Source of the DNA: Candidatus Micrarchaeia archaeon
GTDB taxonomy: Archaea > Micrarchaeota > Micrarchaeia > Anstonellales > Bilamarchaeaceae
Direction of reading: 5' to 3'
DNA length: 64,000 nt
Assembly: GCA_041649555.1 (NCBI GenBank)
Contig: JBAZMS010000002.1
Location: forward strand, 67,898-131,897
How positions within the stretch are numbered: position 1 is the stretch's first letter; every line of letters starts with the position of its first letter. Positions 3,578 through 63,320 of the stretch are shown here, in pieces. The position numbers and the translations under genes were made by a program. The notes below the pieces were generated by a model, which worked only from the letters and a program-made list of their open reading frames with translations, was not told where the DNA came from and did not search any database.

Positions 3578-4475
3578 TAAAAAAGATCTCAATAATGAAG
3601 AAAAAGTGTTCGATTTTTTAATAAATACTTTAATTCCTTCTGTTACCTCTTGGGATTATTTTGTTAATTGGGATAAAGTAAATAAGAATTTAAATGGAAT
3701 AAAAGTTGAATTAAATCTTCTAAATTCTCTTTTGGATTCCCAAAATTTGGAAAATGATTTTATTTCTCTTGTAAAAAAATACCCAAATATAATAAAAGCT
3801 ATTCCAGTTTTGCTTGCAGTAAGAGAAAAGAATTTAAAAATTCTTAAAGATTATCAAGAGAAAGATTTAGCCTATTTAAGTTTTGACTTTAATAAAACCG
3901 CTGTAAGTGATTCTGAAGCCAAAAACTATTTCATTTTTCTTAAAGAAACTCAATTAACTGAACTTTTCAAAAATAAAAAAATTAAAAATTTTGTTGATTA
4001 TGTTTTTGGTGTGGAAGTTGGGCTTGATTCCAATGGAAGAAAAAACAGAGGAGGAAAATTAATGGAAAAGATAACCGAGGTATTTGTTAAGGATGCTATT
4101 TCCAATAATTTTGAATATTTAGCCCAAGCAACACCTAAAAAAATAAAATTAAAATGGGGTTTTGAAGTGAAGTTTGAGAAATCCCAAAGAAGTTTTGATT
4201 TTGCTATTTTTAATGTTGAAAATAAGAAATTATATCTTATTGAATCTAATTTTTACAATGGCGGTGGCTCAAAACTTAAATCAGTTTGTGGAGAATTCAA
4301 AACTTTGTTTAATGAATTAGGTAAACAGGGAATAGAGTTAATATGGATAACCGATGGAAAAGGCTGGCTTACTGCAAGAAATCCTTTAAGAGAAACCTTT
4401 GATAATAATCATTTTGTATTTAATTTAGAGCTTTTAAAATTAGGTGCATTAAAAGAGGTAATTACAGGAGTGTAA
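3555..4475 (+). CDS. Type II restriction endonuclease, DpnII/MboI family (GATC-type)
   Basis: Blocks 'GVEVGLDSNGRKNR', 'NFYNGGGSKL', 'WITDGKGW' and 'LRETFD' recalled as conserved in R.DpnII/R.MboI; overlaps the upstream MTase stop by 23 nt (operon). Confidence 0.7.
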   Translation: MRHLEIYNKKDLNNEEKVFDFLINTLIPSVTSWDYFVNWDKVNKNLNGIKVELNLLNSLLDSQNLENDFISLVKKYPNIIKAIPVLLAVREKNLKILKDYQEKDLAYLSFDFNKTAVSDSEAKNYFIFLKETQLTELFKNKKIKNFVDYVFGVEVGLDSNGRKNRGGKLMEKITEVFVKDAISNNFEYLAQATPKKIKLKWGFEVKFEKSQRSFDFAIFNVENKKLYLIESNFYNGGGSKLKSVCGEFKTLFNELGKQGIELIWITDGKGWLTARNPLRETFDNNHFVFNLELLKLGALKEVITGV

Positions 4476-4478
4476 TCT

Positions 4479-5210
4479 GTGAAAATTAAGCCTGAAAATT
4501 TTGAATTAGAAAATACTAGTGTTTGGTCTTTTCCTGATAGGGGGGACTGGGCAACACATAAAGGAGATTATAGGGGCAATTTTTCACCATACATTCCAAG
4601 AAATGTAATTCTAAGATATTCAAAAGAAAATGATTTAATTTTAGATCCAATGTGTGGAAGTGGCACAACTCTTGTTGAGGCAAAACTTTTGAATAGGAAT
4701 GGTATTGGTTTTGATATAAATTCAAATGCAATTGAGTTTACTAAAAGTAGATTAAAATTTGACTATCACACCAGGACAAAACAAAGTATATTTTTAGGAG
4801 ATGCTAGAAAATTGAATTTAAAGAATGAATCTATCGATCTTATTGTTTGCCATCCGCCCTATTTGGATATTATAAAGTATAATCCTGAAAATGAAAAAGA
4901 TATTTCAAATATTCATAATCTTGATCAGTTTTTGGGTGAAATTAATTTAATTTCAAAGGAATTCTATAGAGTCTTAAAACCAAATAAATACTGCGCTATT
5001 CTTATTGGAGATACAAGAAGAAAAGGAATGTATATTCCACTTTCTTCTAAGGTTATGGATGTTTTTTTAAGGGCTGGATTTAAGTTAAAAGAGGATATCG
5101 TTAAAATTCAATGGAACTGCAAAACAACTCCTTACTGGAAGAGTTTATCTAGTAAATATAATTTTTTACTAATAATGCATGAGCATTTGTTTATCTTTAA
5201 GAAAAGTTAA
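4479..5210 (+). CDS. second DNA methyltransferase of the R-M system (N6-A/N4-C type; 'DPMCGSGTT' precedes 'CHPPY')
   Basis: AdoMet motif I 'LDPMCGSGTTLVEA' at residue ~56 and catalytic 'SIDLIVCHPPY' at ~125; GTG start at 4479 preceded by an 'AGGAG' Shine-Dalgarno ~10 nt upstream. Confidence 0.65.
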   Translation: MKIKPENFELENTSVWSFPDRGDWATHKGDYRGNFSPYIPRNVILRYSKENDLILDPMCGSGTTLVEAKLLNRNGIGFDINSNAIEFTKSRLKFDYHTRTKQSIFLGDARKLNLKNESIDLIVCHPPYLDIIKYNPENEKDISNIHNLDQFLGEINLISKEFYRVLKPNKYCAILIGDTRRKGMYIPLSSKVMDVFLRAGFKLKEDIVKIQWNCKTTPYWKSLSSKYNFLLIMHEHLFIFKKS

Positions 5211-6257: not shown

Positions 6258-6818
6258 CTATCCTTTGCAAACCCGAACAAAGTTTTCCAAAACCTTTTTT
6301 CCTATTTCAAAAGAAACCTCTGGATGAAATTGAACACCATAAATATCCTTTTCCTTATGCTTCATTGCCTCATTATTACAGCTTTTTGATTTTGCAAGTA
6401 AAATAAAATCCAAAGGTAAATCAATATACTCGCTATGCTCTTCTCTAAAAAGGGATTTATCTAAAATCCCTTCAAATATTTGATCCTTTTCTATAATTTC
6501 AATTGTTTCCATTTTATTAATATTATTTCCTAAATAAACCTTAGCCCCATACAACAAACCAATCAGTTGATGGCCAAGACAAATTCCTAGGATTGGAATT
6601 TTAACTTTTTTAACAAATTGGAAAAGCTCCAAATACTTCCCCAAATCACTCTTGGTTAAAAGGGTTGGCGCGCCAGAAATAATAATTCCAGAAAAAGAAC
6701 TAAAATCAAACCCTTTGATCTCATCTAACCCAATAACCCTGCTTAAACAATTAAAACTTTTTAAATGATTTTTAATATCCTCAAGATGATTTGTTCCGCA
6801 GTTAATAATTAATATCAT
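6258..6818 (-). CDS. guaA: GMP synthase [glutamine-hydrolysing] subunit A (class I glutamine amidotransferase)
   Basis: 186 aa; 'GICLGHQLIG' catalytic Cys, 'YGVQFHPEV' His/Glu of the triad; collinear with archaeal GuaAA. Confidence 0.7.
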   Translation of the reverse strand: MILIINCGTNHLEDIKNHLKSFNCLSRVIGLDEIKGFDFSSFSGIIISGAPTLLTKSDLGKYLELFQFVKKVKIPILGICLGHQLIGLLYGAKVYLGNNINKMETIEIIEKDQIFEGILDKSLFREEHSEYIDLPLDFILLAKSKSCNNEAMKHKEKDIYGVQFHPEVSFEIGKKVLENFVRVCKG

Positions 6819-19729: not shown

Positions 19730-19875
19730 TTTTTTTCTAATTTTTTCTTTTTTTTCTTTTATCTGATTTGTTTAATACTTAATTTTTCACTCAGAACTCA
19801 AGATCTTCATCACAAATCAGAAATATTGAGATCATCATTAAATAAAATTATTATAAAAAAGATTTAATATCCCTA

Positions 19876-21540: not shown

Positions 21541-22743
21541 ATGATGGATTCAACAATAAAGTTTAGCAAGATTCCAGTAATGAATACAGCCAAACTGGCA
21601 GCCTATATGTTTTTTGCAATAGGGCTTGTCATGGGTCTTATTATTGGACTACCAATGCTGCTTATTAATCTTGGACTGGCACTAGCGTATATAATTCTGT
21701 TCCCGATTGCAATGGTGATTGTTGGAGCAGTTTTTGGAGCTCTATATGCATTTGGAACAAATTATGGATTTAAATATGCAAATGGACTTCCAGTAGATGT
21801 TTCATATCAATCAGGTCAGCAGGTTGTAATAAAAAAATTGTATGCCATAAAATATGGAATAGTTACAGCATTTCAATGGTTATCAATAATAATTATTCCA
21901 TTGGTGCTAATAAGCCTAATTACAATGATTGCAAATATTGGAGCAGGAATTATGCTTCTGGTCATTGGTTTAATTGGGACAGTAGTAGTTGGATTTATAT
22001 TTGGAATAATTAATGCATTTGGAATAAATGTAGGTTTAGGATTTGCAAAAGGATATCCTGTAAATCTTGAGACAACCCAAAATAAAAGTGTTTTAAAATC
22101 AGTTGATGTTACAAAAACAGGGATAGTTCTTGCAGCAAGCTATCTAATATTTGGGATTCTGCTTGCATTAATCATGCTTTTATTCTATGGAATGTTTGCA
22201 GGTATGATCGATACATTTCTTGGTGCAGCAATGTCAACCTCGTCTCTATCTTCAGATGCAACAACTGCCATAGCAATTATTGGCATAGTTGAAATGTTAA
22301 AATCAGTTCTTCTTATAGGCGCAATAATCTTGCCAATAGCCCTTGCAATCCTTGGATTTATCTCAGGTCTTTTAATTGCCTATGGGGTTAATCTTGGATT
22401 TGGAAAAGAGGGTTATCCAATTGGGCTAACTGTTTCATCTGCGAAATTAACCGTCAATTCAGTTGAAACAAAATCAACAGCAAAACTTTTTGCATTCTAT
22501 TATTTGTTTGCAGGATTGTTTGGAGCTGTTTTAGCCTCAATTGTGGTAATGATGGCAAATGCAGGAGCAGGAATATTAAATCTTTTGATTACTCTAGTTC
22601 TTGATGTTATTATCGGTCTTGTAATGGGTTTTGCACTCAAAAAAGGACTTGATGCAATACAAGGCGGATATGTAATCGAAGGAGAAAACCTCAATTTCTT
22701 GCTTGCAGCAGGCACAGAAAAAAAGGCAAAATCAAAAGCATAA
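21541..22743 (+). CDS. hypothetical polytopic membrane protein with a triplicated internal module
   Basis: Three copies of a [TM-TM]-'G(F/L)xxAxG(Y/L)PV(D/N)L...' unit. Confidence 0.3.
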   Translation: MMDSTIKFSKIPVMNTAKLAAYMFFAIGLVMGLIIGLPMLLINLGLALAYIILFPIAMVIVGAVFGALYAFGTNYGFKYANGLPVDVSYQSGQQVVIKKLYAIKYGIVTAFQWLSIIIIPLVLISLITMIANIGAGIMLLVIGLIGTVVVGFIFGIINAFGINVGLGFAKGYPVNLETTQNKSVLKSVDVTKTGIVLAASYLIFGILLALIMLLFYGMFAGMIDTFLGAAMSTSSLSSDATTAIAIIGIVEMLKSVLLIGAIILPIALAILGFISGLLIAYGVNLGFGKEGYPIGLTVSSAKLTVNSVETKSTAKLFAFYYLFAGLFGAVLASIVVMMANAGAGILNLLITLVLDVIIGLVMGFALKKGLDAIQGGYVIEGENLNFLLAAGTEKKAKSKA

Positions 22744-25806: not shown

Positions 25807-27366
25807 TTACTTGCTCAAATCTCTTTCATTTGGAGGATTATAACTAGGAAAGTTTGTATCAAGGTCTGGTTTTAATCTTATTATTTCTTTATCATACCAT
25901 CTAAGCATTTTAATTATATATTCTTCATTAAAATTGGAATCCTCTTTTGGAGCATCCAATTCATTAATTTGCATTTGAACTGCATCCGCCATTTCACTAT
26001 CCCCTGCACCTTTTAAATAAGTTAATTCATCCAATAATTCTGATCTTCTTTTTTCTTTTTCTTTTTTGGATGCAGAACTTTCAGGGATTTTTGGTTTGGA
26101 TTTTTTATCATTAAAATCCTTAAGTTTTTGTTCAAACTCTTGTTTGCCTTCCATAATTGCAGCATATTGTTCAAATGCCATATTATTTTTTATTATTGCC
26201 TTTACTCTGGGGTCAATAACTTCCGAAGCATCAGAATAAATTTGATTGCCAATAACAGTAATTTTTCCAGGCACAACAAAATCCCTGCTTGCAGCTTTTG
26301 GAAGTATTACACTTGCCATTTTTCCGCTGTTTTTATTTTTTACAGAATTCATAGTTCCAAATATTACGATAGAGTTATCTTTGCAAAGTTCAATAAATGT
26401 TGATATTTCATCGCATATTTTTGATGATCTGGCTTTGGACACTTTAGCATTGTATATCGCAGCAACATTGGGGGCCATTTTTGCCATTGTTTTATCAATA
26501 ATATTTTCAATTGTTTTTGAAGAGTGTAAAAATTCAATTTCTGGGCATTCTGAAGGCAATTTTAGGATTCTGTTTGCATTTTTATTTTTATCCAATATAT
26601 TAATTTTAAATATTCCTTCATTTAATAGGAAATTATTTATTTTATATTCTATTAGTGTTCTTGAAGAATTTTTCTTTATTATTTCGGGAACTTTTGAAGG
26701 ATCCATAAATGCTGGAGCAGGATGGGTTTCTTGTTTATTCAAATTTAAGACGACCTCTGAATTAGGATAAATGAATATTTCCCGACGATAATCTTCATTT
26801 GAAATAAAATCGTTAATGCGGACATATGAATCATTTTCTGTTCCGATAATATCTCCATCCTCCAATATAAAACCAGAATTTTTTGGATCTAGCACCCTAC
26901 TTCCCATTCCAAATTCTTTAACACAGGGAGGAATAGAACTCTCTGGAAGAAGTATTTTTCTTCCCATACGTTTAACATATGCTTTTCCAGATGCTTTAAA
27001 GTTTGATGAAAATATTGAGGTATCTTTTGTGGCACTAATAAAACTTATGCAATGTTTTTTTAACAATTTTATCTTATCTTTAAATTTTTCATCGTATTCA
27101 TACTTAATAGAAATGCCGTTAATGTGTTTTGTAATCACTATCGGAGGATTTATCTTAAACTCTGCGGAAATTTTTTCGCATTCTTCTAATTCCTCATATA
27201 TTTTTCCGATTTCCTTTCCCTTTTCTTTGTATTCTTCTATTTCTTTTGGATCTAGTTCCATCTCTTTTTTTATTTTTTTTTGAGCATCCTTGTTAATCTT
27301 TGAAATTCTTGCAAGAAATTCTTCATTGCTTTCAATTTTTTTTTCTGCTTTATTTTTTTTAGTCAT
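25807..27366 (-). CDS. hypothetical protein (519 aa), K/E-rich termini
   Basis: Long ORF co-oriented and tightly spaced with the next two genes; no motif recognised. Confidence 0.3.
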   Translation of the reverse strand: MTKKNKAEKKIESNEEFLARISKINKDAQKKIKKEMELDPKEIEEYKEKGKEIGKIYEELEECEKISAEFKINPPIVITKHINGISIKYEYDEKFKDKIKLLKKHCISFISATKDTSIFSSNFKASGKAYVKRMGRKILLPESSIPPCVKEFGMGSRVLDPKNSGFILEDGDIIGTENDSYVRINDFISNEDYRREIFIYPNSEVVLNLNKQETHPAPAFMDPSKVPEIIKKNSSRTLIEYKINNFLLNEGIFKINILDKNKNANRILKLPSECPEIEFLHSSKTIENIIDKTMAKMAPNVAAIYNAKVSKARSSKICDEISTFIELCKDNSIVIFGTMNSVKNKNSGKMASVILPKAASRDFVVPGKITVIGNQIYSDASEVIDPRVKAIIKNNMAFEQYAAIMEGKQEFEQKLKDFNDKKSKPKIPESSASKKEKEKRRSELLDELTYLKGAGDSEMADAVQMQINELDAPKEDSNFNEEYIIKMLRWYDKEIIRLKPDLDTNFPSYNPPNERDLSK

Positions 27367-27372
27367 TAAAAT

Positions 27373-28593
27373 TTACCCTACCTTTACTGCGCCAAATTCT
27401 TTTGTTAGCGGCTTATACTTTCTTGGTTTTTCTAAAATTTCATCTATAGCAACGCCATTTATTTTAGTAGTTTCATTTCTTTTTTTCTTCAATTCTTCCA
27501 TACTTTTTGAAGACATTTTTGCCATTCGCTCTATATTTGCGTTTCCCATTCCCTGCGCATAACCTTTCATCATTCCAAATGATTTTTTTATATCTTTCAT
27601 GTGGCCCTTTTCTTCCATCATTTTAAGCATTTCAGGCAATTCTTTCATTTTTTGCATAATTTCCGGAGTAACCTTGGCTCCGTTTGCCTCGCTTATTTTC
27701 ATAAGTCTTTCCAAATCTTCTGCAGACATTTGTTTTAATGTTTCTAAACCTGCAAGGTTCTGCTCTGCAGTACTCCCCATATCTTTCATTTGGTTTGCCA
27801 TGTCGTTTGGGTCAATTGAAGGCATTGCCCGGGTCATTACTTCTTGAAGAGACATAATTAACTGAATATTATTTTGAAAAATATCATCCATTTGAAGTAA
27901 ACCCCTTCGGTATATTGCATCCTTTGTTATAATTATCTCTTCAGGCATGTTTGATTTTGCAAGAAATGATTTTTTTGTCAATAAATTTGTGTACTCCATT
28001 CCGATTGCCCCAATAGATGTGGATTTCATAGGACAGCTGTATATTACATCTTCATAAATATCAAAAAAACCAGAACCATCCCCGTTCTTAACTGTCATTG
28101 ATGCAATAGGAGTTGTAAATGGATCCTCAGTATGGGAATAAGAGACATGAAAAAATCCTTTTTTTAAAAATACATTTTTTACCAATTCACCATAATGCCT
28201 TTCTTTTGTTTTAGGATTAGTTACATCCCATTTTTCAAATCCAGATAATTGTAATTCGCTATTAGGTCCTGCAAAAATTGTTTTTGAAACCCTATATTTA
28301 AAATCATTATTTGGTTTATCCTTTCCTTTATTATAGGATATATTAATTTGTATTCTGGTTCTTTTTCCAGAATTAATAGTATCCCCGTCCATAAGTTTTG
28401 GATATTCGCTTTTAAATTTATCCAATTTGCTGTGATCTTTGGTCTTTTGAAATTCTTCTATTAATTTAGCCTCAGTTTCTACCGAGGGAATACCTATTTT
28501 TTTTCCATTTTTTCTTTTTATAAATCCATTTGGACCTAATACATATAAATTAATTCTCCCGGTTTCAATATCAAATGTCATCATTTGCGCCAT
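27373..28593 (-). CDS. hypothetical protein with Met-rich SRP54-M-like C-terminal region
   Basis: C-terminus 'EIMQKMKELPEMLKMMEEKGHMKDIKKSFGMMKGYAQGMGNANIERMAKMSS'. No GTPase motifs. Start placed at the internal Met (MAQMMTF) just after the upstream gene's stop; the ORF track extends to 28659. Confidence 0.3.
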   Translation of the reverse strand: MAQMMTFDIETGRINLYVLGPNGFIKRKNGKKIGIPSVETEAKLIEEFQKTKDHSKLDKFKSEYPKLMDGDTINSGKRTRIQINISYNKGKDKPNNDFKYRVSKTIFAGPNSELQLSGFEKWDVTNPKTKERHYGELVKNVFLKKGFFHVSYSHTEDPFTTPIASMTVKNGDGSGFFDIYEDVIYSCPMKSTSIGAIGMEYTNLLTKKSFLAKSNMPEEIIITKDAIYRRGLLQMDDIFQNNIQLIMSLQEVMTRAMPSIDPNDMANQMKDMGSTAEQNLAGLETLKQMSAEDLERLMKISEANGAKVTPEIMQKMKELPEMLKMMEEKGHMKDIKKSFGMMKGYAQGMGNANIERMAKMSSKSMEELKKKRNETTKINGVAIDEILEKPRKYKPLTKEFGAVKVG

Positions 28594-28595
28594 CT

Positions 28596-28913
28596 TTATT
28601 TCAATGCTTCTCCGCATTGCTTGCAGAATTTTGTTCCTATAACATATTCTATATTGCATTTTTCACATTTTACAATTAGACGGAATCCACATTCTGGGCA
28701 GAATTTTGCATCTGGTTCCAGTTTAGCCTTGCATTTTGGACATTTTTCCAAAGGTTTTTTTGATCCTTTTTCATTTTTTAGCGCATCTAAACCTTTTGTT
28801 GCCCCTGCAACAACACTTCCGGTTGCAATATCTCCGGCCTTATAAGTTAAATTATCCTTTGTCCGTTTGAGTACTGTATCCATTACACCATCCAGTATGC
28901 CCATATCTTTCAC
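28596..28913 (-). CDS. double zinc-ribbon protein
   Basis: 'CPKCKAKLEPDAKFCPECG' and 'CEKCNIEYVIGTKFCKQCG'. Confidence 0.45.
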   Translation of the reverse strand: MKDMGILDGVMDTVLKRTKDNLTYKAGDIATGSVVAGATKGLDALKNEKGSKKPLEKCPKCKAKLEPDAKFCPECGFRLIVKCEKCNIEYVIGTKFCKQCGEALK

Positions 28914-36909: not shown

Positions 36910-37140
<231 letters not shown>

Positions 37141-37151
37141 TTAAAATTACT

Positions 37152-37308
37152 GGGCTTGTAGTTCACCGGTAGAACGCTCCCTTGGCATGGGAGAGGCAGG
37201 GGGTTCAATATACTGTTTTGGGTTTAGGGTTTAGAAGTTTTGGGTTAATTATGCACAAAACTCAAAACTGAAAACAATCAGATTATTATGAAATTCCCCC
37301 CAAGTCCA
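37152..37308 (+). tRNA. tRNA-Ala (anticodon GGC) with an ~85-nt intron inside the T-loop
   Basis: Acceptor GGGCTTG/CAAGTCC with a G3:U70 wobble (alanine identity element). D-arm GTTC-ACCGGTA-GAAC. Anticodon arm CTCCC-TTGGCAT-GGGAG. T-stem GGGGG (37199-37203) pairs with CCCCC (37296-37300). T-loop TTCAA|..intron (~37209-37293)..|TT. Discriminator A37308; CCA not encoded. Confidence 0.7.
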
Positions 37309-37700
37309 TTTCTTTGTTTTGGGTTAATCTGCTTATAGGTTAGTTTTGAGAGTATATTAGGCAATTATATTACTAATTTATTCCACATTTTACCACAATT
37401 CATTTAAACCTTTCCAATCTATATATTATGCTCGCGCCTTTGGATTTTCCGGGTGCCTTGGAAAAAGGTATATTGCAGAACTCTCTGTTTGGCTATAACC
37501 AGCAATGTGATGTCTGGGCTTTATCTCATCGCATGAAGCTTGTGCCATTTAAGTAATTCTGTATTATGAAGAACGCAGTAATAACCAATGAGCTAGGTTT
37601 ATGTTGGCTCTTTCCTGCAGGTTCTTCGACCGAGTCCAGAAAGGTGCGGGCTGTTTTTTTCTTAATTTTGTTGTAATATATTTTTAAAAATTAATTAATT
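37309..37700. other. ~390-nt gene-free segment, candidate structured ncRNA (unassigned)
   Basis: No ORF >60 aa on either strand in a genome that is otherwise >90% coding. Contains GC-richer patches ('GCGCCTTTGGATTTTCCGGGTGCC', 'GAGTCCAGAAAGGTGCGGGCTG') and ends in a T7 run at ~37656-37662. Confidence 0.2.
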
Positions 37701-38354: not shown

Positions 38355-41162
38355 ATGTCTGAATTAAAAAAAGTAAGCGATGCAATATGGAAAATTGAAA
38401 AAGAGGAAAGTATGAATGTCCCTGCATATGTTTTTGGAACAGAAAGAATAGTCCAGAAAATGAAGGGAGATAAGACATTTATCCAATTAAAAAATGCAGC
38501 GTCCCTTCCAGGAATAATTGATCGGGCCTGCGTTATGCCCGATGGCCATGAAGGATATGGTTTTCCAATTGGAGGAGTTGCAGCCTTTGATGCAAATGAG
38601 GGAATTGTTTCCCCCGGAGGCATAGGGTATGATATTAACTGCCTTCATCCAGATTCAAAAATTTTAACTTCCCTTGGCTATACAAAAAAAATAAAAGAGT
38701 TTGAAAATGATTTTTCCTTTATGGTCCAGACAAATGGAACAATTCTAATGCATGGAAAATCTTCCCTATGCACTGGAAATTTAAATCGAAATGCAATTTC
38801 ATTTATGTATAAACAATATGAAGGAATTCTTTACTCTGTTTCAACTCTTTCAAATGCAGTTTCTCTAACTCCTGACCATCCAATATTTACTATAAATGGA
38901 AAAAAACTTCCAGATCAATTAAAAGAGGGCGATTTAATCCTGGTATATCCTTTCGAAGGAGTTCAATATTCCCCACTTGATGGAAATGAAGAAGAAATTG
39001 CAAGATATGCAAAATTACTTGGATATTTGACTGGAGACGGAACCCTGACTTATTGTGGAAAAAAGTTGAGAGTAACTTTTTTTGGAAAGGAAAAAGATCT
39101 TGAAAAAATAAAAGAGGATGTAACTTTTTTAGGTTATCATTCCCATTTGCGTACAAGAACAAGAAAACATAAAATAAATGAAAAAGAATTTATTTCAACT
39201 AATTCAGAGCTTCATGTGTATTCTGATGAATTTGCAAAAAAACTGCTCGAACTTGAAGCTCCACTCGGAAATAAGACAAAAACCATTTTTAGAATTCCAA
39301 ACTGGATAAGGCAATCTCCATTATGGATAAAAAGATTATATCTTGCATCTCTTTTTGGAGCAGAGCTTTCTAGTCCAAAAACCTCTTCAAAAACCGGATT
39401 TTATATGCCTATTTTAAGTATGAACAAGGAAGAAAAATTAGAAGAAAATTTAAGGGGGTTTTTTCTTGATTTAACAGAGCTTCTCAAGGAATTTTCAGTA
39501 GAGGTTTCAAAAATTGCCTTTGTTGAAAAAATAAAAGATAAGATAAGATTAAGATTGGAAATTGATGGAACTGAAGAAAATATTGAAAATTTATATTCAA
39601 AAATAGGTTTTGAGTATAATGAAGATAGGCTGTTTCTTGGGCTTTGCACGATTTTATATATAAGATATAAGAGGCAATATCGAGATAAAAGAGAAGAAAT
39701 AAGGGCAAAGGTAGTTGAATATAAATCAAAAGGGTTTTCCTTAAAGGAACTTCAAAAAAGATTCTCTGGAAAATGGGCAAACAATAGATTTATCGAAAGA
39801 GCATATTATGAAAATAAAAGTGCTAGAGCTCCATTGTCAATTAAAAGTTTTAATGATTTTGCAGCCAAACAAAAAGAATATTATTCTTCCTTTGGTGCAT
39901 TAGCCTCGCCTATTTTAGATATTTCAAAAACTAATTATTCTGGAAAGGTTTTTGATTTTACTATAGAAGGAGTTCATAAATTTATTGCACAGCAAATAGT
40001 AGTTTCAAATTGCGGCGTCAGGCTGTTAACAACTAATTTAACCGAAGACCAAGTCCGCCCAAAAATAAAAGAATTATGCGATAAATTATTCAAAAATGTT
40101 CCTTCAGGAGTTGGTTCAGAAAGCAAACTAAAAATCTCTCATGAAGAACTAGACAGTGCAGTAGAGCTTGGAATTGATTGGGCAATAGAAAAAGGATATG
40201 GCAGGAAAGAAGATAAACAGAGAACAGAAGAATATGGAAGAATGATTGGAGCTGATGCAACAGCAGTATCTCCTACTGCAAAAAAAAGAGGAAAAACACA
40301 ATTTGGAACGCTTGGTGCGGGAAATCATTTTTTAGAAATTCAAAAAATAGAAAAAATACATGATGAAAATTCTGCAAAATCATTTGGTCTTGAAGAAGGA
40401 AAAATTGCAGTAATGATTCATTGCGGTTCTAGAGGCTATGGCCATCAAATCTGTTCTGATGCCCTTCCAATACTTTTAACTTATGCAAGGAAAAATAATA
40501 TTTCACTTCCTGATCCAGAATTAGTTTATGCTCCAATACAAAGTGAGGAAGGACAAAAATACCTAAAAGGAATGCAATGCGGTGTAAATTATGCATTCAT
40601 AAACAGGCATGTAATTATGCACTGGGTAAGAGAAACCTTTGATGAGGTATTTGGAAAAGGAACTTCTGATTCAATGAATCTTGTATACGATGTTGCGCAT
40701 AATATCGCAAAATTTGAAAAACACCTTGTTAATGGAAAAACCCAAGAATTATTGGTGCATAGAAAAGGAGCAACAAGGGCATTTCCAAAAGGAAGGGAAG
40801 AATTGCCCATTGAATATCGCTCAATCGGACAGCCGGTTTTAATTCCAGGTTCAATGGGAACTGCAAGCTATGTTTTAGTTGGAGAGGAAAAAGGCCTTGA
40901 GGTTTCCTGGGGTTCAACCTGCCATGGTGCAGGAAGAGTGATGAGCAGGGGGGAGGCAATAAGGTCTTTTAGGGGAGATAAATTAAGAGATGAACTCTGG
41001 AACCAAAATAAAATATATGTTCGCGCAACTAACCCCAAAGTAATTGCAGAAGAGGCTCCAAATGCTTATAAGGATGTTGATGAAGTAGTTGAGAGCGTTG
41101 TAAAGGCAGGGATAAGCAAAATTACTGCAAGAATGAAACCTATAGGGGTAGTTAAAGGATAA
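38355..41162 (+). CDS. rtcB: tRNA-splicing ligase RtcB, interrupted by an intein
   Basis: Exteins: 'MPDGHEGYGFPIGGVAAF', 'GGIGYDIN|C...N|CGVRLLTT', 'GAGNHFLEIQ', 'HCGSRGYGHQ', 'HNIA', 'HRKGATRA' (metal/GMP site residues). 935 aa minus a 457-aa intein = 478 aa, the usual RtcB size. Confidence 0.85.
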   Translation: MSELKKVSDAIWKIEKEESMNVPAYVFGTERIVQKMKGDKTFIQLKNAASLPGIIDRACVMPDGHEGYGFPIGGVAAFDANEGIVSPGGIGYDINCLHPDSKILTSLGYTKKIKEFENDFSFMVQTNGTILMHGKSSLCTGNLNRNAISFMYKQYEGILYSVSTLSNAVSLTPDHPIFTINGKKLPDQLKEGDLILVYPFEGVQYSPLDGNEEEIARYAKLLGYLTGDGTLTYCGKKLRVTFFGKEKDLEKIKEDVTFLGYHSHLRTRTRKHKINEKEFISTNSELHVYSDEFAKKLLELEAPLGNKTKTIFRIPNWIRQSPLWIKRLYLASLFGAELSSPKTSSKTGFYMPILSMNKEEKLEENLRGFFLDLTELLKEFSVEVSKIAFVEKIKDKIRLRLEIDGTEENIENLYSKIGFEYNEDRLFLGLCTILYIRYKRQYRDKREEIRAKVVEYKSKGFSLKELQKRFSGKWANNRFIERAYYENKSARAPLSIKSFNDFAAKQKEYYSSFGALASPILDISKTNYSGKVFDFTIEGVHKFIAQQIVVSNCGVRLLTTNLTEDQVRPKIKELCDKLFKNVPSGVGSESKLKISHEELDSAVELGIDWAIEKGYGRKEDKQRTEEYGRMIGADATAVSPTAKKRGKTQFGTLGAGNHFLEIQKIEKIHDENSAKSFGLEEGKIAVMIHCGSRGYGHQICSDALPILLTYARKNNISLPDPELVYAPIQSEEGQKYLKGMQCGVNYAFINRHVIMHWVRETFDEVFGKGTSDSMNLVYDVAHNIAKFEKHLVNGKTQELLVHRKGATRAFPKGREELPIEYRSIGQPVLIPGSMGTASYVLVGEEKGLEVSWGSTCHGAGRVMSRGEAIRSFRGDKLRDELWNQNKIYVRATNPKVIAEEAPNAYKDVDEVVESVVKAGISKITARMKPIGVVKG
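38640..40010 (+). mobile_element. intein with LAGLIDADG homing-endonuclease domain inside rtcB
   Basis: Begins with Cys (CLHPDSKILTSLGY) right after the extein 'GYDIN'. Two LAGLIDADG-type motifs ('LLGYLTGDGTL', 'LYLASLFGAELS'). Ends '...VVSN' followed by extein 'CGVRL'. Confidence 0.75.
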
Positions 41163-43659: not shown

Positions 43660-44979
43660 ATGTCAAATTTAGAAGGTTATTTAAATAATGTGGATGGTGT
43701 TACTAAACAAGCGATCCAGAAAAAAGTATTAACAAGAATGGATCTTAAAGGAGAGAATAGATTCTATAATTCTATAGAAGCGAAAACTAAGATTAGATTG
43801 TTTGATACATTAGTTTATCTCTTACATTACTATTCAGGGTCTGATGAGGAAACAGTTAAACAGAACACATTACAAAAGTTAATTGAATTTTGTGTGAATC
43901 ATGGAGCATTTTTCAATTTGTTAGAACTATCTGATGATAAAGAGTTACCTCCTATTGTAAGAGAAGCATTTAAGAATAATATGGCAAATGCAATTTTACA
44001 TTTTATTAAAAACCACCATTTTTCTCTTTATGAAATAGTATATATATCCAAAAGTGAGAACTTTCATCCATTAATAAGACAAGTTGCTATGGATAACTTA
44101 AATGATTCAGCCCTATATCATATTGAAAATGGAGCTAGCGTGATTGATCTAATAAGCATAGCTAATGATACCAAAATGTTTTCTCCATCTGTTAGAAATA
44201 TTGCTTCTGATGATATAAAAATTAGGACAAAGTATTATATAGAACATACAGTAAAAGAAAAAAACTGGCCTGGTGCTGACTCCTTTATCAAAAGCTTTAA
44301 TACTCTTTCGAAAAATCAAATTTCTTTATCTGTGTTGCAAGACGATCAATATCATAAGTTGATTGAAGAATTAATATGTGGGGTTTTTTCTATTGAGTAT
44401 AACGAATATAGAAAGGATAGTTCTAATGGGAATTTTGCTATTATATTTGTAAATATAGTAATTTTGTTATTCCAAGCAATACCTGAAAATTTCTATGAAT
44501 CTGTTTCACAGAAATTTTTTGAAGTAATGAAACGGAATCCTACGATCGTATATATGTTAACAAATGATGAGGCTCTCCCACTATCTTTACGCGAATTTTT
44601 TGGATCTAAATACTTAGATTTGATCGAAAATAATTCGCATGATAAAATAAAATTCTGTAATAAAATGGTTAAAATATGTAATAGTGAAAATTCCCCTTCA
44701 TCAATGAGAATATATGCTGGAAAACAATATGTGTGTGCCCTTTTAGATACTTATATGCACCCGGAGGATCTTTTACTTAAATTAATTAAAAATGAAAAAA
44801 CTTTAGGAGAGGTAAGAGTGTTTGCCCAAATAAAATTGAATCAGATCTTTAAAAAAGTAATTGATGAATTAAAATTAAATGAAAGAAATCCTCTTGAAAG
44901 GGACGGAATTATAAGTAAACCTAAATTTAGATTTATAAAAAAACTAGTCAAACCTTTTAGGCGTCTAGTTAAAACATAA
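43660..44979 (+). CDS. hypothetical alpha-helical protein (439 aa)
   Basis: No motif recognised; driven by the duplicated promoter. Confidence 0.3.
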   Translation: MSNLEGYLNNVDGVTKQAIQKKVLTRMDLKGENRFYNSIEAKTKIRLFDTLVYLLHYYSGSDEETVKQNTLQKLIEFCVNHGAFFNLLELSDDKELPPIVREAFKNNMANAILHFIKNHHFSLYEIVYISKSENFHPLIRQVAMDNLNDSALYHIENGASVIDLISIANDTKMFSPSVRNIASDDIKIRTKYYIEHTVKEKNWPGADSFIKSFNTLSKNQISLSVLQDDQYHKLIEELICGVFSIEYNEYRKDSSNGNFAIIFVNIVILLFQAIPENFYESVSQKFFEVMKRNPTIVYMLTNDEALPLSLREFFGSKYLDLIENNSHDKIKFCNKMVKICNSENSPSSMRIYAGKQYVCALLDTYMHPEDLLLKLIKNEKTLGEVRVFAQIKLNQIFKKVIDELKLNERNPLERDGIISKPKFRFIKKLVKPFRRLVKT

Positions 44980-49243: not shown

Positions 49244-49621
49244 ATGCAAAATATAACAGTAAGAAACTTCAAACCCAAGGAACAATTGGGTATGCATTTG
49301 GTTGCTGAAATTTATTTTTCAGACCCAGCTGTTCTAAATGATGAAGAAAAGATAAGGGAAGCATTGATAGATGCTTCTATTGCAGGAAACATGACAGTTA
49401 TTAATACTTCTTCACATAAATTTTCTCCGCACGGAGTTACTGCGTTAGTTTTGTTGGCAGAATCACACATTTCAATTCATACCTGGCCAGAGCATGGTTA
49501 TGCAGCAATAGATATATTTGCCTGCGGCAGGGGAGAACCTGAAAAATCACTTGAAAGGCTAAAAGAATTACTGCCTGTAAAAGAATTAAAAGTTTTAAAA
49601 ATTAACAGAGGGCTGTTCTAA
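49244..49621 (+). CDS. speH: S-adenosylmethionine decarboxylase proenzyme (pyruvoyl-dependent, SpeH type)
   Basis: 'LVLLAESHISIHTWPE' self-cleavage Ser motif; 125 aa. Confidence 0.8.
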   Translation: MQNITVRNFKPKEQLGMHLVAEIYFSDPAVLNDEEKIREALIDASIAGNMTVINTSSHKFSPHGVTALVLLAESHISIHTWPEHGYAAIDIFACGRGEPEKSLERLKELLPVKELKVLKINRGLF

Positions 49622-49762: not shown

Positions 49763-51335
49763 TTGGAGGTGATCTATCCGCAGGTTCCCCTACGGATACC
49801 TTGTTACGACTTAGCCCTCCTCACACTTCCCCGATTCGAACCTGACTATGATCAGGGCCTCATCGAAAAAATATTCGGATGACTTGACGGGCGGTGTGTG
49901 CAAGAAGCAGGGACACATTCACCGCGAGATAGTGACTCGCGATTACTAGCCATTCCAGCTTCATGAGGGTGAGTTGCAACCCTCAATTCGAACTATGGTT
50001 GGATTTAGGGGATTTGCTTCTCCTCTCGGAGTTGCGGCCCATTGTTCCAATCACTGTATGCCGCGTGTAGCCCAAGGCATTCGGGCCATACTGACCTACC
50101 GTCGCCCACTTCTTCCTCCCATTTAACACGGGCAGTCCTCTTAAAGTGCTCCATATCCGCAGATATAGATAGCAACTAAGAGCATGGGTCTCGCTCGTTT
50201 CAGGACTTAACCTGACAGTTCACACCACGAGCTGACGATGGCCATGCAACACCTCTCGGCTTGTCAGGCAAGATCTTTAGTCTGACCTTCATACTGCCGT
50301 CGGCCTTGGTGATATTTCTGGCGTTGTATCCAATTAAACCGTAGCATCCACGGCTTGTGGTGCTTCCCCGCCAATTCCTTTAAGTTTCAATCTTGCGATC
50401 GTACTCCCCAGGCGGCAGACTTAACACTTACATACCTAAAACTTAAAAATTTAAGTTATAAGGTTCTACGCTACAGCACTTCCCTAACTTACGTTAGAGA
50501 AACACCAGAGTCTGCATCATTTACTGCTAGGACTACCGGGGTCTCTAATCCCGTTCGCTCCCCTAGCCTTCGTCCCTCACCGTCAGAAACGTTTTGATTG
50601 GGCGCCTTCGCCACTGATAGTCCACCTAGGATCAACGGATCGTAATCTTTAAATTGCAAATTTTAGACGCAGTTTAAAGATTTTTACCCCTACCCCAGGT
50701 GTACTCCCAATCTCCCCCGTTCTCTAGCCTAACAGTATCTACTGCACGCCTTAGAGTTAAGCCCTAAGATTTCACAGTAGACTTAATAAGCCGGCTACGG
50801 ACGCTTTAGGCCCAGTATACGTGGGTACCACTCGAGGCGCTGGTATTACCGCGGCGGCTGCCACCAGTCTTTCCCACACCCTTATTCTCCAAGTTATTTA
50901 CACTTGGCAAAAGACATTGGCAAAGCCAATGCCACTCAGAATCCCCCTATCACGCTTTCGCGCATTGTAAAGTTTTCGTCCCTGCTGCATCCCGTAGGAC
51001 TAGGGCCCTTGTCTCAGTGCCCTTCTGGGGGCCACCACTCTCATGGCCCCTAGAGATTATAGGTTTGGTGAGCCGTTACCACACCAACAGCCTAATCCCC
51101 CGCAGTCCCGTCCTATGGCGGTCTGGCTACAATTTGCCAGCCTTTTGAATGATTAAGCATTCCAGCATAAATCATCTATCGTGGATTATCCTCAGTTTCC
51201 CGAGGTTATACACGTCCTTAGGGTAGGTTGACTACGTGTTACTCAGCCTTGTGCCACTTTTGGAAGCCCAAAAGTAGACTTGCATGGTTTATTCGGATTC
51301 TGATAGCAGTACCCTCCAGTAGGATCAACTGGAAT
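49763..51335 (-). rRNA. rrs: 16S ribosomal RNA (stand-alone, no linked 23S or spacer tRNA)
   Basis: Minus-strand reading gives 5' 'ATTCCAGTTGATCCTACTGGAGGGTACTGCTATCA...' and 3' '...AAGTCGTAACAAGGTATCCGTAGGGGAACCTGCGGATAGATCACCTCC'. Universal blocks are present (the 515 region 'GTGGCAGCCGCCGCGGTAATAC', the 806 region 'GGATTAGAGACCCCGGTAGTCC'). Confidence 0.9.
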
Positions 51336-52713: not shown

Positions 52714-53571
52714 TCAATAAATTTTCTTTTTTAAAAAATTAGGGATTCCAAAGCTTCCGATATGTATCTCTTTATTATAGTATTTTAAACCTTCAATACT
52801 TCCAATTTTCTTAGAATCAAAATTATTTATCGGATCATACTTTTTTGAACAGAATGAAAACCCGATCACTCCGCTTGGGTATGTCGGAACAAGGGCAAAA
52901 TAATATTTATAAATTGGAAATAAATCCTGCAATTCCTTTCCAGTCCTCTCAATTATATCCTGATGGTAATACATTGATTCTGATTGCGTTACTAAAATTC
53001 CATCTTCGTTTAGTGCATCATTTATATCAGAATAAAATTGCCTTTGAAATAAAATTTCAGCAGGGCCCACAGGATCGCTCGAATCAACAATTATAATATC
53101 ATAATTTTTATTTTCTTTTATAAATTTAGCCCCATCCTCTGTATAAATCTTAACTCTTTTATCATTTAATCCTTGTGAAACTTCCGGGAAATGTCTTTTG
53201 CCAACCTCAATTACTTCCTCATCAATTTCACATAAATGTATCTCCTCAATTTTTTTATGTTTTACTATTTCACTTATTGTTCCCCCATCCCCGCCTCCAA
53301 TAACCAAAACTTTTTTTGGATTAGGATGGGCAAATATCGGAACATGGGCAATCATTTCGTGATATGCAAAATTATCAAATTCAGTCAGCATTACCGCATC
53401 ATCCAAGACAAGCATTTTTCCAAATCCTTTTGTCTGCATAATTCGTACCCGCTGAAATTTTGAATTGTAATCCTCTATTACTTTTTCTATTTCTATTCTC
53501 ATTCCCCTTCCTTTTTTTGCCTCATCGCCTTCCTGAAAAAAATATTTTTCCATTTTTTTTCCACACCTCAT
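52714..53571 (-). CDS. speE: spermidine synthase / polyamine aminopropyltransferase
   Basis: 'KVLVIGGGDGGTISEIVKH', 'DIIIVDSSDPVGPA' and the proton-relay region match SpeE. Confidence 0.8.
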   Translation of the reverse strand: MRCGKKMEKYFFQEGDEAKKGRGMRIEIEKVIEDYNSKFQRVRIMQTKGFGKMLVLDDAVMLTEFDNFAYHEMIAHVPIFAHPNPKKVLVIGGGDGGTISEIVKHKKIEEIHLCEIDEEVIEVGKRHFPEVSQGLNDKRVKIYTEDGAKFIKENKNYDIIIVDSSDPVGPAEILFQRQFYSDINDALNEDGILVTQSESMYYHQDIIERTGKELQDLFPIYKYYFALVPTYPSGVIGFSFCSKKYDPINNFDSKKIGSIEGLKYYNKEIHIGSFGIPNFLKKKIY

Positions 53572-53942
53572 TTTCTTTTTAATATTTTCATTCTTGATTT
53601 TTTAGCCCCAAAATAATTAATTGAAAACCTTTTCATTTTTTCAAAGTCATATTCTTTGCAACTAAATAAATCTATATATCCATATCCTATGTTCCCGTTT
53701 TTTGAAATCCCGAAATGACAACATATTGAGGATGTTTCTATCAATTGTATTGCAGTATATCCGCAATACCCCTGTTTCTTTCCAAAATATTTTATGATTG
53801 TTTTTCCAAATTTTTTCATTTTTATTATTTTGCACAATTGCGCGATATACTCTATTATTACTTTTTTATTTTCAACTCTTGTTATATCACATCCACATAT
53901 ATCCAAATGAGTTGATGTCCCCCAATATTTAATGTCCATCAA
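53568..53942 (-). CDS. AdoMetDC-like pyruvoyl-enzyme paralog (possibly an arginine decarboxylase-type derivative)
   Basis: 'GYTAIQLIETSSICCHF...GYIDLFSC' parallels speH 'GVTALVLLAESHISIHTW...AAIDIFAC'; overlaps speE by 4 nt. Confidence 0.5.
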   Translation of the reverse strand: MMDIKYWGTSTHLDICGCDITRVENKKVIIEYIAQLCKIIKMKKFGKTIIKYFGKKQGYCGYTAIQLIETSSICCHFGISKNGNIGYGYIDLFSCKEYDFEKMKRFSINYFGAKKSRMKILKRK

Positions 53943-55472: not shown

Positions 55473-56489
55473 TTAAATTTGATTTTTTTCTTTTGGAAAA
55501 CCATACAACTCTCTAAATTTTACTATTCCGCCATATTTTCTTACCACTGAATCAGGAATATGGGTATTAAGGCCAATAACCACATTTAGTTGTTCAAGGG
55601 ATGGAACCTCCATAAACATTTGTATGTATTCTCTCATTAGTGTTGCTATAAATTCCGGATTTTTTAATTTTTCAAGTTTTTCTTTTTCTGAAATATTAGA
55701 AAATTTATACTGTTCAAGAACCTTTTCAAATCTTTTCTTCATTTCTTCATTTCTTTTTCTTATTTTTAATGATACTGGGCATCCCCTTTTTTCTTTGGTA
55801 TAATACCCCCACATTCCATCATTATCTTGGGGGACCAAATACTTGTCCCTATTAACCAATGTGCTTATTTCCTCATCTGTTATATCCCTGATTTTATAAT
55901 AGTCGGATTTCTTGTTTAATTTTGCATTTTTAAAAATTTCTTTAAATCTTCTGCTTCCGATATCTACATTGCAAAAAATGCTTGTTTTTTTATCCTCGGA
56001 TACAAAATCCACAACAAAATATTCCCTGATCATAAATAATCCTGCAATTTCCCAGTCTGCTTTAAATCTGGATTTTTTTAAAAAATCATATATTTGTGTT
56101 TCTGCTTCTTGTTTATATCCTTCTATTTTTTCATTTTGCAAATAATAAAGGGAAATCCAGAGAATAAATAATTCTTTGTCATGTTCGTTGAAATCCAGTT
56201 TGCCTTCATTTTCCATTAAAGGCAGGGTGATTTCAAGCAAATTGCACCATGTTTCAAGAAGAAACCCCTGCCTATGCTTTGTGCGCATTTTTATTTCATT
56301 CATTTTTTCTAAGATCTGTCCACCCTTAGGGATATTATTTAAAAAATTTAAGATTTGTCTGAAATCCATATTCCTTATTCTTGTTAAAAGATTAGTTTTA
56401 TTTTCTATATCCTCACAAATAGGTGGAACAAGTTTAATTCTTTTTTTTGGAACGTAATTATCTGTGAGAATAGTTGATAAAGAACCCAT
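55473..56489 (-). CDS. hypothetical protein (338 aa)
   Basis: Intact ORF, no motif recognised. Confidence 0.3.
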   Translation of the reverse strand: MGSLSTILTDNYVPKKRIKLVPPICEDIENKTNLLTRIRNMDFRQILNFLNNIPKGGQILEKMNEIKMRTKHRQGFLLETWCNLLEITLPLMENEGKLDFNEHDKELFILWISLYYLQNEKIEGYKQEAETQIYDFLKKSRFKADWEIAGLFMIREYFVVDFVSEDKKTSIFCNVDIGSRRFKEIFKNAKLNKKSDYYKIRDITDEEISTLVNRDKYLVPQDNDGMWGYYTKEKRGCPVSLKIRKRNEEMKKRFEKVLEQYKFSNISEKEKLEKLKNPEFIATLMREYIQMFMEVPSLEQLNVVIGLNTHIPDSVVRKYGGIVKFRELYGFPKEKNQI

Positions 56490-62099: not shown

Positions 62100-63320
62100 A
62101 TGAGTTATAAATTTCTGCTGATATTTTTATTTGTTATATCAGTATTTTTATCAGCAGATTCTTTTTTTAGTATAAATGACCTTCAAAAATTTATTCTTCC
62201 TGCAACAATTCTTCTTGTAAGTGCTATTTTTGCCCTTTCCTGGGCCCTTTCAGACCTTTTCAATTCTCCAGAATTGAAAGCATGGGTAAAAATAGAGCTT
62301 AGAAGCTTTATTTCAGGGGCAATTTTAATGATTCTTGTGCTGGCATTATTTTTTGGAACAAATTCCGTAACATATATTTTAACTGGGCAACCCGATGTTT
62401 CAGGGGCTGCAATAAACACATTAGAAGGATTTACAAAACCGCTTGAAGCTGCATATTCGGAATTAGTTACTGCCTCGCATTATATAGGAATGGCTGCGGG
62501 TTTTGGATATTCCGCGCCTGCATGGATGTATTATTTTTCATATAGTTTTATGAACAGCCCCCACTCCGGTGTTTCCGCCCTAAATAGCATGGTTATGCAG
62601 GGCGCAACAAGCATAAGCCAGGGAATTTTCATTTATTACACCCTGATAGTTCTTCTTGATTACTTTTCCAAGGTTATCCCCCCGGTAATTCTTCCAATTG
62701 CCCTTTCGTTAAGATTTATCCCATTTACAAAAAAGATAGGAAACACTTTGATAGCGCTTTGCATAGGTGCTGCGATAATCTTTCCTGTTTCTGTTCTTTT
62801 AGTTTCAGAATTTCATAACATTGCAATGAAAAATATCGGCACTCCGACACTGGATATGGAACCGTTCAAAAGTTTTTCATATCCTGCAATCGGCTGGCTT
62901 TGCGGAGGAGGGGATGCTGTAATAGGAACTGCAAAAGCATTTATCCAAGTTGGCGAGTTTGTATGGGGAATCATTGAAGGAGTTGCATGTTGCGCTGCAT
63001 TTCCTCCAAGCTGCCCTATTAATTTTGTACTTTGCTTTACTGCTGCAAGTTCAGTTGTTTATCCTATAACCGTTGGAGCTTACCAGGCATTGTTTTGGAC
63101 AATTGTTGCAATGGATTATAATTCATTTTTTGGAGAAGTTGATGTAATAGGGATATATTACTCCCTTTCAGCATTTCTTGAAACAGTAATAAAATACCTG
63201 CTAATAAGTGTAATTGACGCCCTGTTAATAATTATAATCACTGTAGTTGGCACAAAAAGTATTTCAATGGCAATTGGCGGAGAAGGATATTTCTATGGAA
63301 TACAAAGGTTGATCGGATGA
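62100..63320 (+). CDS. hypothetical polytopic membrane protein (406 aa)
   Basis: ~10 predicted TM segments; Cys-rich loop 'GVACCAAFPPSCPINF'. Confidence 0.3.
   Translation: MSYKFLLIFLFVISVFLSADSFFSINDLQKFILPATILLVSAIFALSWALSDLFNSPELKAWVKIELRSFISGAILMILVLALFFGTNSVTYILTGQPDVSGAAINTLEGFTKPLEAAYSELVTASHYIGMAAGFGYSAPAWMYYFSYSFMNSPHSGVSALNSMVMQGATSISQGIFIYYTLIVLLDYFSKVIPPVILPIALSLRFIPFTKKIGNTLIALCIGAAIIFPVSVLLVSEFHNIAMKNIGTPTLDMEPFKSFSYPAIGWLCGGGDAVIGTAKAFIQVGEFVWGIIEGVACCAAFPPSCPINFVLCFTAASSVVYPITVGAYQALFWTIVAMDYNSFFGEVDVIGIYYSLSAFLETVIKYLLISVIDALLIIIITVVGTKSISMAIGGEGYFYGIQRLIG

Follow-up and report, generated by a model that had tools for sequence, protein, structure and literature searches.

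A tRNA-Ala(GGC) gene interrupted by a bulge-helix-bulge intron at position 59/60 in an uncultured member of the Micrarchaeia

A tRNA gene whose T-loop is split by a long insert may be a functional gene carrying an intron or the remains of one. This question was raised by the locus at 37152-37308 (+) of the window, i.e. the whole stretch of 64,000 nucleotides (64 kb) that was analysed. The sequence reads GGGCTTG-TA-GTTC-ACCGGTA-GAAC-G-CTCCC-TTGGCAT-GGGAG-AGGCA-GGGGG-TTCAAT, followed by 85 AT-rich nucleotides and by T-CCCCC-CAAGTCC-A, and corresponds to a tRNA-Ala(GGC) gene split by an 85-nt intron. The initial annotation had proposed an interrupted T-loop and its coordinates, which were exact: GGGGGTTCAA begins at 37199 and TTCCCCCCAAGTCCA at 37294. 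The insert was AT-rich as announced (28.2 % GC), compared with 59.7 % GC in the exons and 32 % in the 64-kb window. The gene consists of the following parts:

37152..37209, +, exon 1 of tRNA-Ala(GGC), standard positions 1-59 with position 17 absent; acceptor 5' strand, D-arm, anticodon arm, variable loop, T-stem 5' strand and T-loop nucleotides 54-59
37185-37187, +, anticodon GGC of tRNA-Ala
37210..37294, +, BHB intron of 85 nt at position 59/60
37295..37308, +, exon 2 of tRNA-Ala; U60, T-stem CCCCC, acceptor CAAGUCC and discriminator A73

Removal of the 85 nt in silico yielded a 72-nt RNA that ARAGORN called as tRNA-Ala(GGC). The complete cloverleaf with G3:U70 claimed previously was thus borne out, all stems being intact: the acceptor displayed seven bps including G3:U70, the D-stem four, the anticodon stem five and the T-stem five, with A73 as discriminator. 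Exon 2 provides the U70 that faces G3 and does not encode CCA. The predicted spliced junction joins …GGGGGUUCAAU to UCCCCCCAAGUCCA and restores the T-loop UUCAAUU, which together with GG in the D-loop is the usual form. The tRNA region was found with 100 % identity in a Logan contig from SRR8542065.

Standard scanners had been said to miss such genes often, and this was the case here: ARAGORN in default mode reported no tRNA anywhere in the 64-kb window, and Rfam none in the window at the gathering threshold or at E<=1. The gene was recovered by a blind scan in which every strict-BHB candidate (~19,000 on both strands of the 64 kb) was spliced in silico and then submitted to ARAGORN. A single tRNA emerged, namely tRNA-Ala(GGC) with intron 37210-37294. 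Relaxed BHB criteria added variants of the same locus and one tRNA-Ser(UGA) candidate at 6609-6745 (-), with a 40-nt intron and located inside a GATase-domain ORF (6258-6818); it was rejected on quality because of its 37 % GC, its acceptor with three G·U pairs and a mismatch, and its 4-bp T-stem. Nine 'tRNAs' with introns of 200-2300 nt, proposed by the low-stringency intron mode of ARAGORN, were all implausible. Neither a second tRNA-Ala nor any other credible tRNA was found in the 64-kb window by ARAGORN and the BHB scans. Group I and group II introns have a catalytic core of hundreds of nucleotides, and a self-splicing intron of either group was rejected for this insert, which is 85 nt long and has no Rfam match.

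The exact position of the intron had been left between 58/59 and 59/60. Four splice registers (56/57 to 59/60) yield one identical mature sequence, and the BHB geometry fits only one of them, so that the intron was placed at 59/60. The hallmark of an archaeal intron is a helix of 4 bp between two 3-nt bulges on opposite strands; at the canonical site, nucleotides 32-35 form the 5' strand of the helix and the cut falls after the second bulge nucleotide (PMC4090602). This canonical-site geometry was transposed to the T-arm to assign the splice sites. A bulge-helix-bulge fold at the exon-intron junctions, which the initial annotation had named as the thing to look for, formed in its strict version (hBHBh'):

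37199..37210, +, 5' half of the motif; h GGGGG (37199-37203), H UUCA (37204-37207), bulge AU|A (37208-37210)
37289..37300, +, 3' half of the motif; H UGAA (37289-37292), bulge AU|U (37293-37295), h CCCCC (37296-37300)

The outer helix is the T-stem GGGGG/CCCCC and the central helix pairs U54-A57 (UUCA) with UGAA, 4/4 pairs being Watson-Crick. The bulges are A58 U59|A on the 5' side and A U|U60 on the 3' side, with predicted cuts after 37209 and after 37294, and the inner helix opens with UA/UA and runs into a long hairpin. The fold constrained to the strict motif amounted to -45.4 kcal/mol against -47.4 for the MFE, a difference of 2 kcal/mol; the unconstrained MFE paired the base of the intron hairpin in a slightly different way and lacked the central helix. 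Only 361 out of 100,000 composition-preserving shuffles of the intron gave a 4/4 central helix together with a 2-bp inner helix in the fixed canonical register.

Conservation of gene and junction was followed in 80 syntenic loci from GTDB species representatives, fetched via an alignment of NYN homologs and titled nearly all Micrarchaeota, Micrarchaeia, Bilamarchaeaceae or 'ainarchaeum'. The tRNA-Ala(GGC) gene was located just after the Sm gene in most of the 80 loci. About 49 orthologs were resolved by spliced alignment and inspection; ~18 were intronless and 15-16 carried an intron at 59/60. Since the gene is uninterrupted in ~18 relatives, the predicted spliced product is the normal gene of the lineage. 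Mature tRNA-Ala of the window and of locus L037 were alike at 65 of 72 positions.

Thirteen genes (the window and 12 loci; spliced alignment added two or three others) were analysed at 59/60. Their inserts were 19-98 nt long and unrelated in sequence, the 19-nt intron of L042 being the textbook minimal case. At the fixed 59/60 register, 44 out of 52 possible central-helix pairs formed; shifted registers gave 18-27, and 44 was reached in none of 20,000 shuffles. Counted as paired cells, pairing was 87 % at the register and 43-60 % when slid. The covariation score was 0.527 compared with <=0.166 in slid registers, and was attained by none of 500 shuffles. The motif UUCA/UGAA alternated with UGCG/CGCA, following the T-loop sequence of each species. 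The BHB at this junction is therefore conserved and covarying.

All three members of the window's clade kept the insert at the same T-loop site, and exon 1 was identical (100 %) in L001 and L002. The closest relative was L002, with a NYN protein 95 % identical and a Sm gene ~92 % identical at the DNA level. Its exons matched those of the window at 72/72 positions, while its intron (98 nt) and both flanks were unalignable with those of the window. As exons remained identical where intron and flanks had diverged beyond alignment, they are under purifying selection; in terms of sequence evolution, exons kept next to an intron whose interior is free to diverge are what a functional gene is expected to display. 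The tRNA-Ala(GGC) gene with its BHB intron at 59/60 is thus very probably functional, and its precursor would be cut by the splicing endonuclease (EndA) and joined by RtcB.

Many loci displayed a distinct version of tRNA-Ala(GGC), here called type A, with T-loop UGCGAGU (G55) and D-loop AGCAGCA without G18G19 (for example L021 3824-3895 and L049 3825-3896; Rfam score 62-66 bits). U55 is near-universal in tRNA. G55 together with the missing G18G19 suggests that the D-loop/T-loop interaction has co-varied.

The immediate surroundings of the gene comprise the following features:

36916..37140, +, Sm-like (LSm) protein gene, stopping 11 nt before the tRNA
37119..37126, +, TATATATA, within the Sm gene near its 3' end, at -33 to -26 from the first tRNA position
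37309..37328, +, T-rich 3' trailer TTTCTTTGTTTTGGGTTAAT, holding the third GTTTTGGGTTAAT copy (37316-37328)
38355..41162, +, RtcB RNA ligase gene with intein; PF01139 split by the intein, 935 aa in total

By its position, TATATATA is a possible archaeal TATA box for the tRNA, and the trailer TTTCTTTGTTTTGGGTTAAT is probably an oligo-T termination region. A NYN protein gene lies two genes upstream of the tRNA, and the order NYN-Sm-tRNA-Ala(GGC) was conserved across Micrarchaeota. Downstream, a DnaJ-domain gene precedes the intein-containing RtcB ligase gene. The RtcB family joins tRNA exons after BHB cleavage; its proximity to tRNA-Ala was seen only in the window's clade (L001-L003), and the linkage is therefore probably incidental. 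Pfam scans of the ~56 ORFs of the window detected no EndA or splicing endonuclease domain, so that the enzyme type was taken from the lineage, where a three-unit ε2 enzyme is expected.

As to the enzymes, the cleavage in vivo and what becomes of the intron, we infer the following pathway. Transcription may start at the TATA-like element near the end of the Sm gene, or both genes may be transcribed together; the runs of four T held by the intron could weaken read-through. In the precursor, the T-stem, the helix between 54-57 and the intron, and the intron hairpin would stack into hBHBh', the two 3-nt bulges presenting both splice sites and the remainder of the intron forming a long GU-rich hairpin that extends the inner helix. 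EndA would then cut after 37209 and after 37294, and RtcB, encoded 1 kb downstream, would ligate the 2',3'-cyclic phosphate and 5'-OH ends into the 72-nt tRNA. Maturation would involve RNase P, a 3' end-processing nuclease and the CCA-adding enzyme, CCA being added post-transcriptionally, and the excised intron is probably circularised.

Such a gene is in keeping with what is documented in the same phylum. The non-canonical sites on record include 59/60, and introns of 11 to 129 nt are known (PMC4090602). In ARMAN-2 (Candidatus Micrarchaeum acidiphilum), 56 % of tRNA genes are disrupted; pre-tRNA-Cys(GCA) carries a 13-nt intron at 59/60 with a relaxed hBH motif, pre-tRNA-Pro(GGG) carries introns at 53/54 and 59/60 with strict motifs, and the broad-specificity ε2 EndA cleaved a 59/60 intron in vitro (Fujishima et al. 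2011, PMC3239211). The earlier suggestion of a lineage with a relaxed-specificity endonuclease agrees with the window being archaeal by its 16S rRNA gene and belonging to Micrarchaeota (DPANN), the public annotation of its NYN-domain protein being Candidatus Micrarchaeia/Micrarchaeota, a phylum for which the ε2 enzyme cleaving 59/60 introns is known from ARMAN-2 (PMC3239211). As 59/60 introns and the ε2 endonuclease were described for ARMAN-2 in 2011, the feature is expected rather than unusual in this organism; what is added here is a further tRNA, an intron of greater length and one more genome from the uncultured Micrarchaeia. The window shares with ARMAN-2 the phylum, the 59/60 site, the use of the T-stem as outer helix and, with its tRNA-Pro, the strict hBHBh'. 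It differs by its tRNA, Ala(GGC), by an intron of 85 nt instead of the 13 nt of tRNA-Cys, by a strict motif instead of the relaxed hBH of that tRNA, and by its host, a different uncultured low-GC Micrarchaeia MAG.

Non-canonical introns and their large-scale transposition have also been reported for Thermoproteales and other archaea with (alpha-beta)2 endonucleases (PMC4090602). Both groups display BHB introns at 59/60 and other non-canonical sites, several per gene, with similar sequences at different positions. Thermoproteales nevertheless belong to a different phylum and, by inference, differ in endonuclease architecture; they display the phenomenon in many tRNA genes per genome, whereas in Micrarchaeota related introns were found at varied positions of one orthologous gene and in its trailer. 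The euryarchaeal tRNA-Trp intron, located at the canonical 37/38 site, carries a box C/D sRNA with recognisable C/D boxes. The window intron resembles it in being a BHB intron of unusual length whose interior is structured, but lies at 59/60 and is devoid of C/D boxes. Split and permuted tRNA genes are known from Nanoarchaeum equitans, Caldivirga and Cyanidioschyzon; they share BHB-like junctions processed by the same endonuclease and ligase, while the exons of the window are adjacent, colinear and on one strand, and require neither trans-splicing nor a circular tRNA-body intermediate.

Intron states varied widely among the ~49 orthologs: ~18 were intact, 10 were interrupted at 59/60 only, eight in the D-loop only, five at 37/38 only, and ~8 carried two or three introns. 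Multi-intron loci included L015 (D-loop, 37/38 and 59/60), L014 (37/38 and 59/60) and L003 (variable region and 59/60). These states were found among close relatives, as the NYN protein of L039 (59/60 intron) was 92-93 % identical to those of the intronless L021, L033 and L049, and ~90 % identical to that of L038, which has a D-loop intron.

The fold of the window intron is a long, imperfect hairpin, GU-rich in its 5' arm and AC-rich in its 3' arm. The 5' arm carries repeats:

37214..37249, +, GU-rich heptad-like repeats of the intron 5' arm; TGTTTTGGGTT at 37214-37224 and GTTTTGGGTTAAT at 37237-37249

These repeats belong to a cargo that aligns with the 37/38 intron of L066; over both hairpin arms the alignment scored 31, a value reached by five of 16,634 background windows, and support for this match was modest. 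Other pairs were more distinct. The 59/60 intron of L039 (3849-3992) and the 37/38 intron of L014 (3879-4083) are homologous over 61 columns, with ~82 % identity and a score of 55, against a background maximum of 30 among 16,634 windows. Similarly, the 37/38 intron of L020 (3840-3963) and the D-loop intron of L041 (3977-4104) scored 40 for a background maximum of 30, and were homologous to the 59/60 intron of L056 (3577-3685). The motif GTTT[TC]C[AC]GT[TC]T occurred 13 times in ~530 kb (loci and window), always in tRNA-Ala introns or trailers. A search of metagenomes with the cargo pattern GAAACGGRAAACYGGAAAC returned >120 matches, mostly on high-GC unrelated contigs; as these had no partner arm and no tRNA context, they were uninformative. 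Scans of viral contigs gave one unrelated match to the cargo pattern and no matches to the type-A tRNA-Ala 3' end.

In ~10 loci with an intact or D-loop-interrupted gene, the 3' trailer carried one to three tandem units of ~90 nt each. A unit begins with an 11-bp stem that starts at the tRNA's own GTCCA and holds the T/G-rich motif in its loop, continues with a short GC hairpin and closes with CGAGTCCA, a copy of the acceptor 3' strand; the middle six pairs of the stem covary (nine versions). Such units were located at the following positions:

L021, 3891-4119
L049, 3892-4043
L033, 3906-4052
L066, 4050-4429
L037, 1759-1819
L048, 3930-3988
L036, 2415-2471
L061, 3934-3993
L020, 3959-4017

The trailer units matched no Rfam family, the tRNAs themselves being the sole matches. 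They might represent an array of processed sRNAs, minihelix punctuation resembling tRNA, or scars of insertion. Homology of the window intron to its own 3' trailer was considered and rejected: the shared part was the 13-mer GTTTTGGGTTAAT only, and the score of the local alignment was reached by 24 of 3000 shuffles and surpassed by unrelated genome windows. Partial duplications of the tRNA were encountered as well. In L058 (3842-3995) the last 23 nt of the tRNA (GGGTGCGAGTCCCCCAGAGTCCA) occur once more, 60 nt beyond an intact gene, and duplicated 5' fragments lie upstream of the gene in L031 (about 3880-3960, GGGCTCGTAGCTC…) and L066 (3825-3910, GGGCATGTAGCTCAG…). They are possibly intron-gain intermediates or integration scars.

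Other readings of the insert have to be set against this material. The locus might be a decayed pseudogene, broken by the 85-nt insertion and left unprocessed, with the isoacceptor supplied elsewhere; standard scanners indeed fail on it, and since the search for a second copy covered the 64-kb window, an intact one elsewhere in the genome is possible. Decay is nevertheless very improbable in view of exons identical to those of L002 at all 72 positions next to unalignable intron and flanks, of stems that are all intact, of a strict BHB covarying across 13 genes, of an insert shared at the same site by all three members of the clade, and of a sole tRNA-Ala at a conserved syntenic position in a window with no other tRNA. 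The initial annotation would have taken the absence of a BHB-like fold together with another intact tRNA-Ala as the mark of a pseudo-tRNA; a strict BHB was present, and no other tRNA-Ala was found in the window. A further reading concerns the origin of the insert and is compatible with its being spliced at present: a mobile-element scar, or a local duplication of 3' exon and trailer, at the T-loop, trimmed to 85 nt. The 3' part of tRNA genes is a typical target of integrative elements, such an origin being discussed in PMC3239211, and duplication is evoked by the extra 3' copy in L058, by the 5' fragments in L031 and L066, by the ~10 trailers with tandem units each ending in CGAGTCCA, and by the 13-mer of the window intron that recurs 7 nt after the tRNA. 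This origin is unlikely all the same: no tRNA segment is duplicated around 37210-37294, no integrase or mobile-element gene was found among the neighbouring ORFs of the window, similarity between intron and trailer was confined to the 13-mer and not above background, viral contigs held neither the 3' end of a type-A tRNA-Ala nor any relevant copy of the cargo motif and so lent no support to a viral att site, and the homologous cargo at 37/38 and in the D-loop is unexplained by either 3'-end integration or duplication.

A function of the intron itself was also weighed, in that it may carry a small RNA, as the euryarchaeal tRNA-Trp intron does. The GU-rich heptad hairpin would then be freed by splicing and act independently, for example as a U-rich ligand of the Sm protein encoded immediately upstream. 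With 85 nt the intron exceeds the usual 12-25 nt (PMC4090602), related cargo has persisted in the trailers and at several positions of the orthologous gene, the 13 occurrences of the GTTT[TC]C[AC]GT[TC]T motif in ~530 kb all fell into tRNA-Ala introns or trailers, and the Sm-tRNA-Ala linkage is conserved. Such a role appears quite improbable, as neither the intron (E<=1) nor the trailer units belonged to an Rfam family, the intron displayed no RUGAUGA C box, leaving a C/D box cargo unsupported, and its fold was unexceptional (z = -1.8); the cargo was moreover absent from many orthologs, among them L042 with its 19-nt intron and L002, the closest relative, which argues against an essential RNA. 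The homologous cargo at different positions and in trailers rather suggests relocation of introns within the tRNA-Ala gene. A conserved hairpin cargo of GU-rich and AC-rich heptads might thus move among the D-loop, 37/38, 59/60 and the 3' trailer of orthologous tRNA-Ala(GGC) genes, a proposal that is made tentatively and with some doubt. Such movement would occur on short evolutionary timescales, possibly via trailer capture or reverse splicing. Convergence of low-complexity hairpins, or capture of trailer sequence, are possible alternatives.

Several other features of the window were recorded. Its 16S rRNA gene (49764-51335, -) displayed a 42-nt insertion at 50640-50681 (-) relative to the archaeal SSU model. 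This segment can form a strict hBHBh' (H GUAA/UUAC, bulges AA|A and GA|U, inner helix running into a 10-bp stem), and the consensus GGGUAGGGGUAAAAUCCGUUGAUCC reappears once the segment is removed; the insertion may be a BHB mini-intron of the 16S rRNA or an expansion segment that is retained. Rfam detected no 23S or 5S gene within the window, and the 16S gene is flanked by polyamine genes, namely AdoMet decarboxylase (49244-49621), spermidine synthase (52714-53571) and a second AdoMetDC (53568-53942). A C/D box sRNA-like sequence (UGAUGA…CUGA…UGAUGA…CUGA) was located at 19790-19841 (-) between BacA-family and Na/Pi-cotransporter genes, with 33.6 bits to Rfam sR5 for a gathering score of 40. 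A type II restriction-modification cluster at 2717-5210 (+) comprised a D12-class adenine methyltransferase, a DpnII-family endonuclease and a second N6/N4 methyltransferase. Long ORFs (338-519 aa) without Pfam match at E<=0.05 were located at 21541-22743, 25807-28659, 43660-44979, 55473-56489 and 62100-63320.

The gene described here is the only credible tRNA in 64 kb and was overlooked by both ARAGORN and Rfam. Because scanners miss such genes, genomes of this lineage appear tRNA-poor unless BHB-aware tools are applied. In the comparison of 80 loci, a single orthologous gene took at least five structural forms in closely related organisms. Homology of introns across positions was statistically solid. 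How archaeal tRNA introns arise and move is a long-standing question, for which this locus offers a tractable system. If relocation is true, the locus would be a natural time series of archaeal tRNA intron gain, movement and loss.
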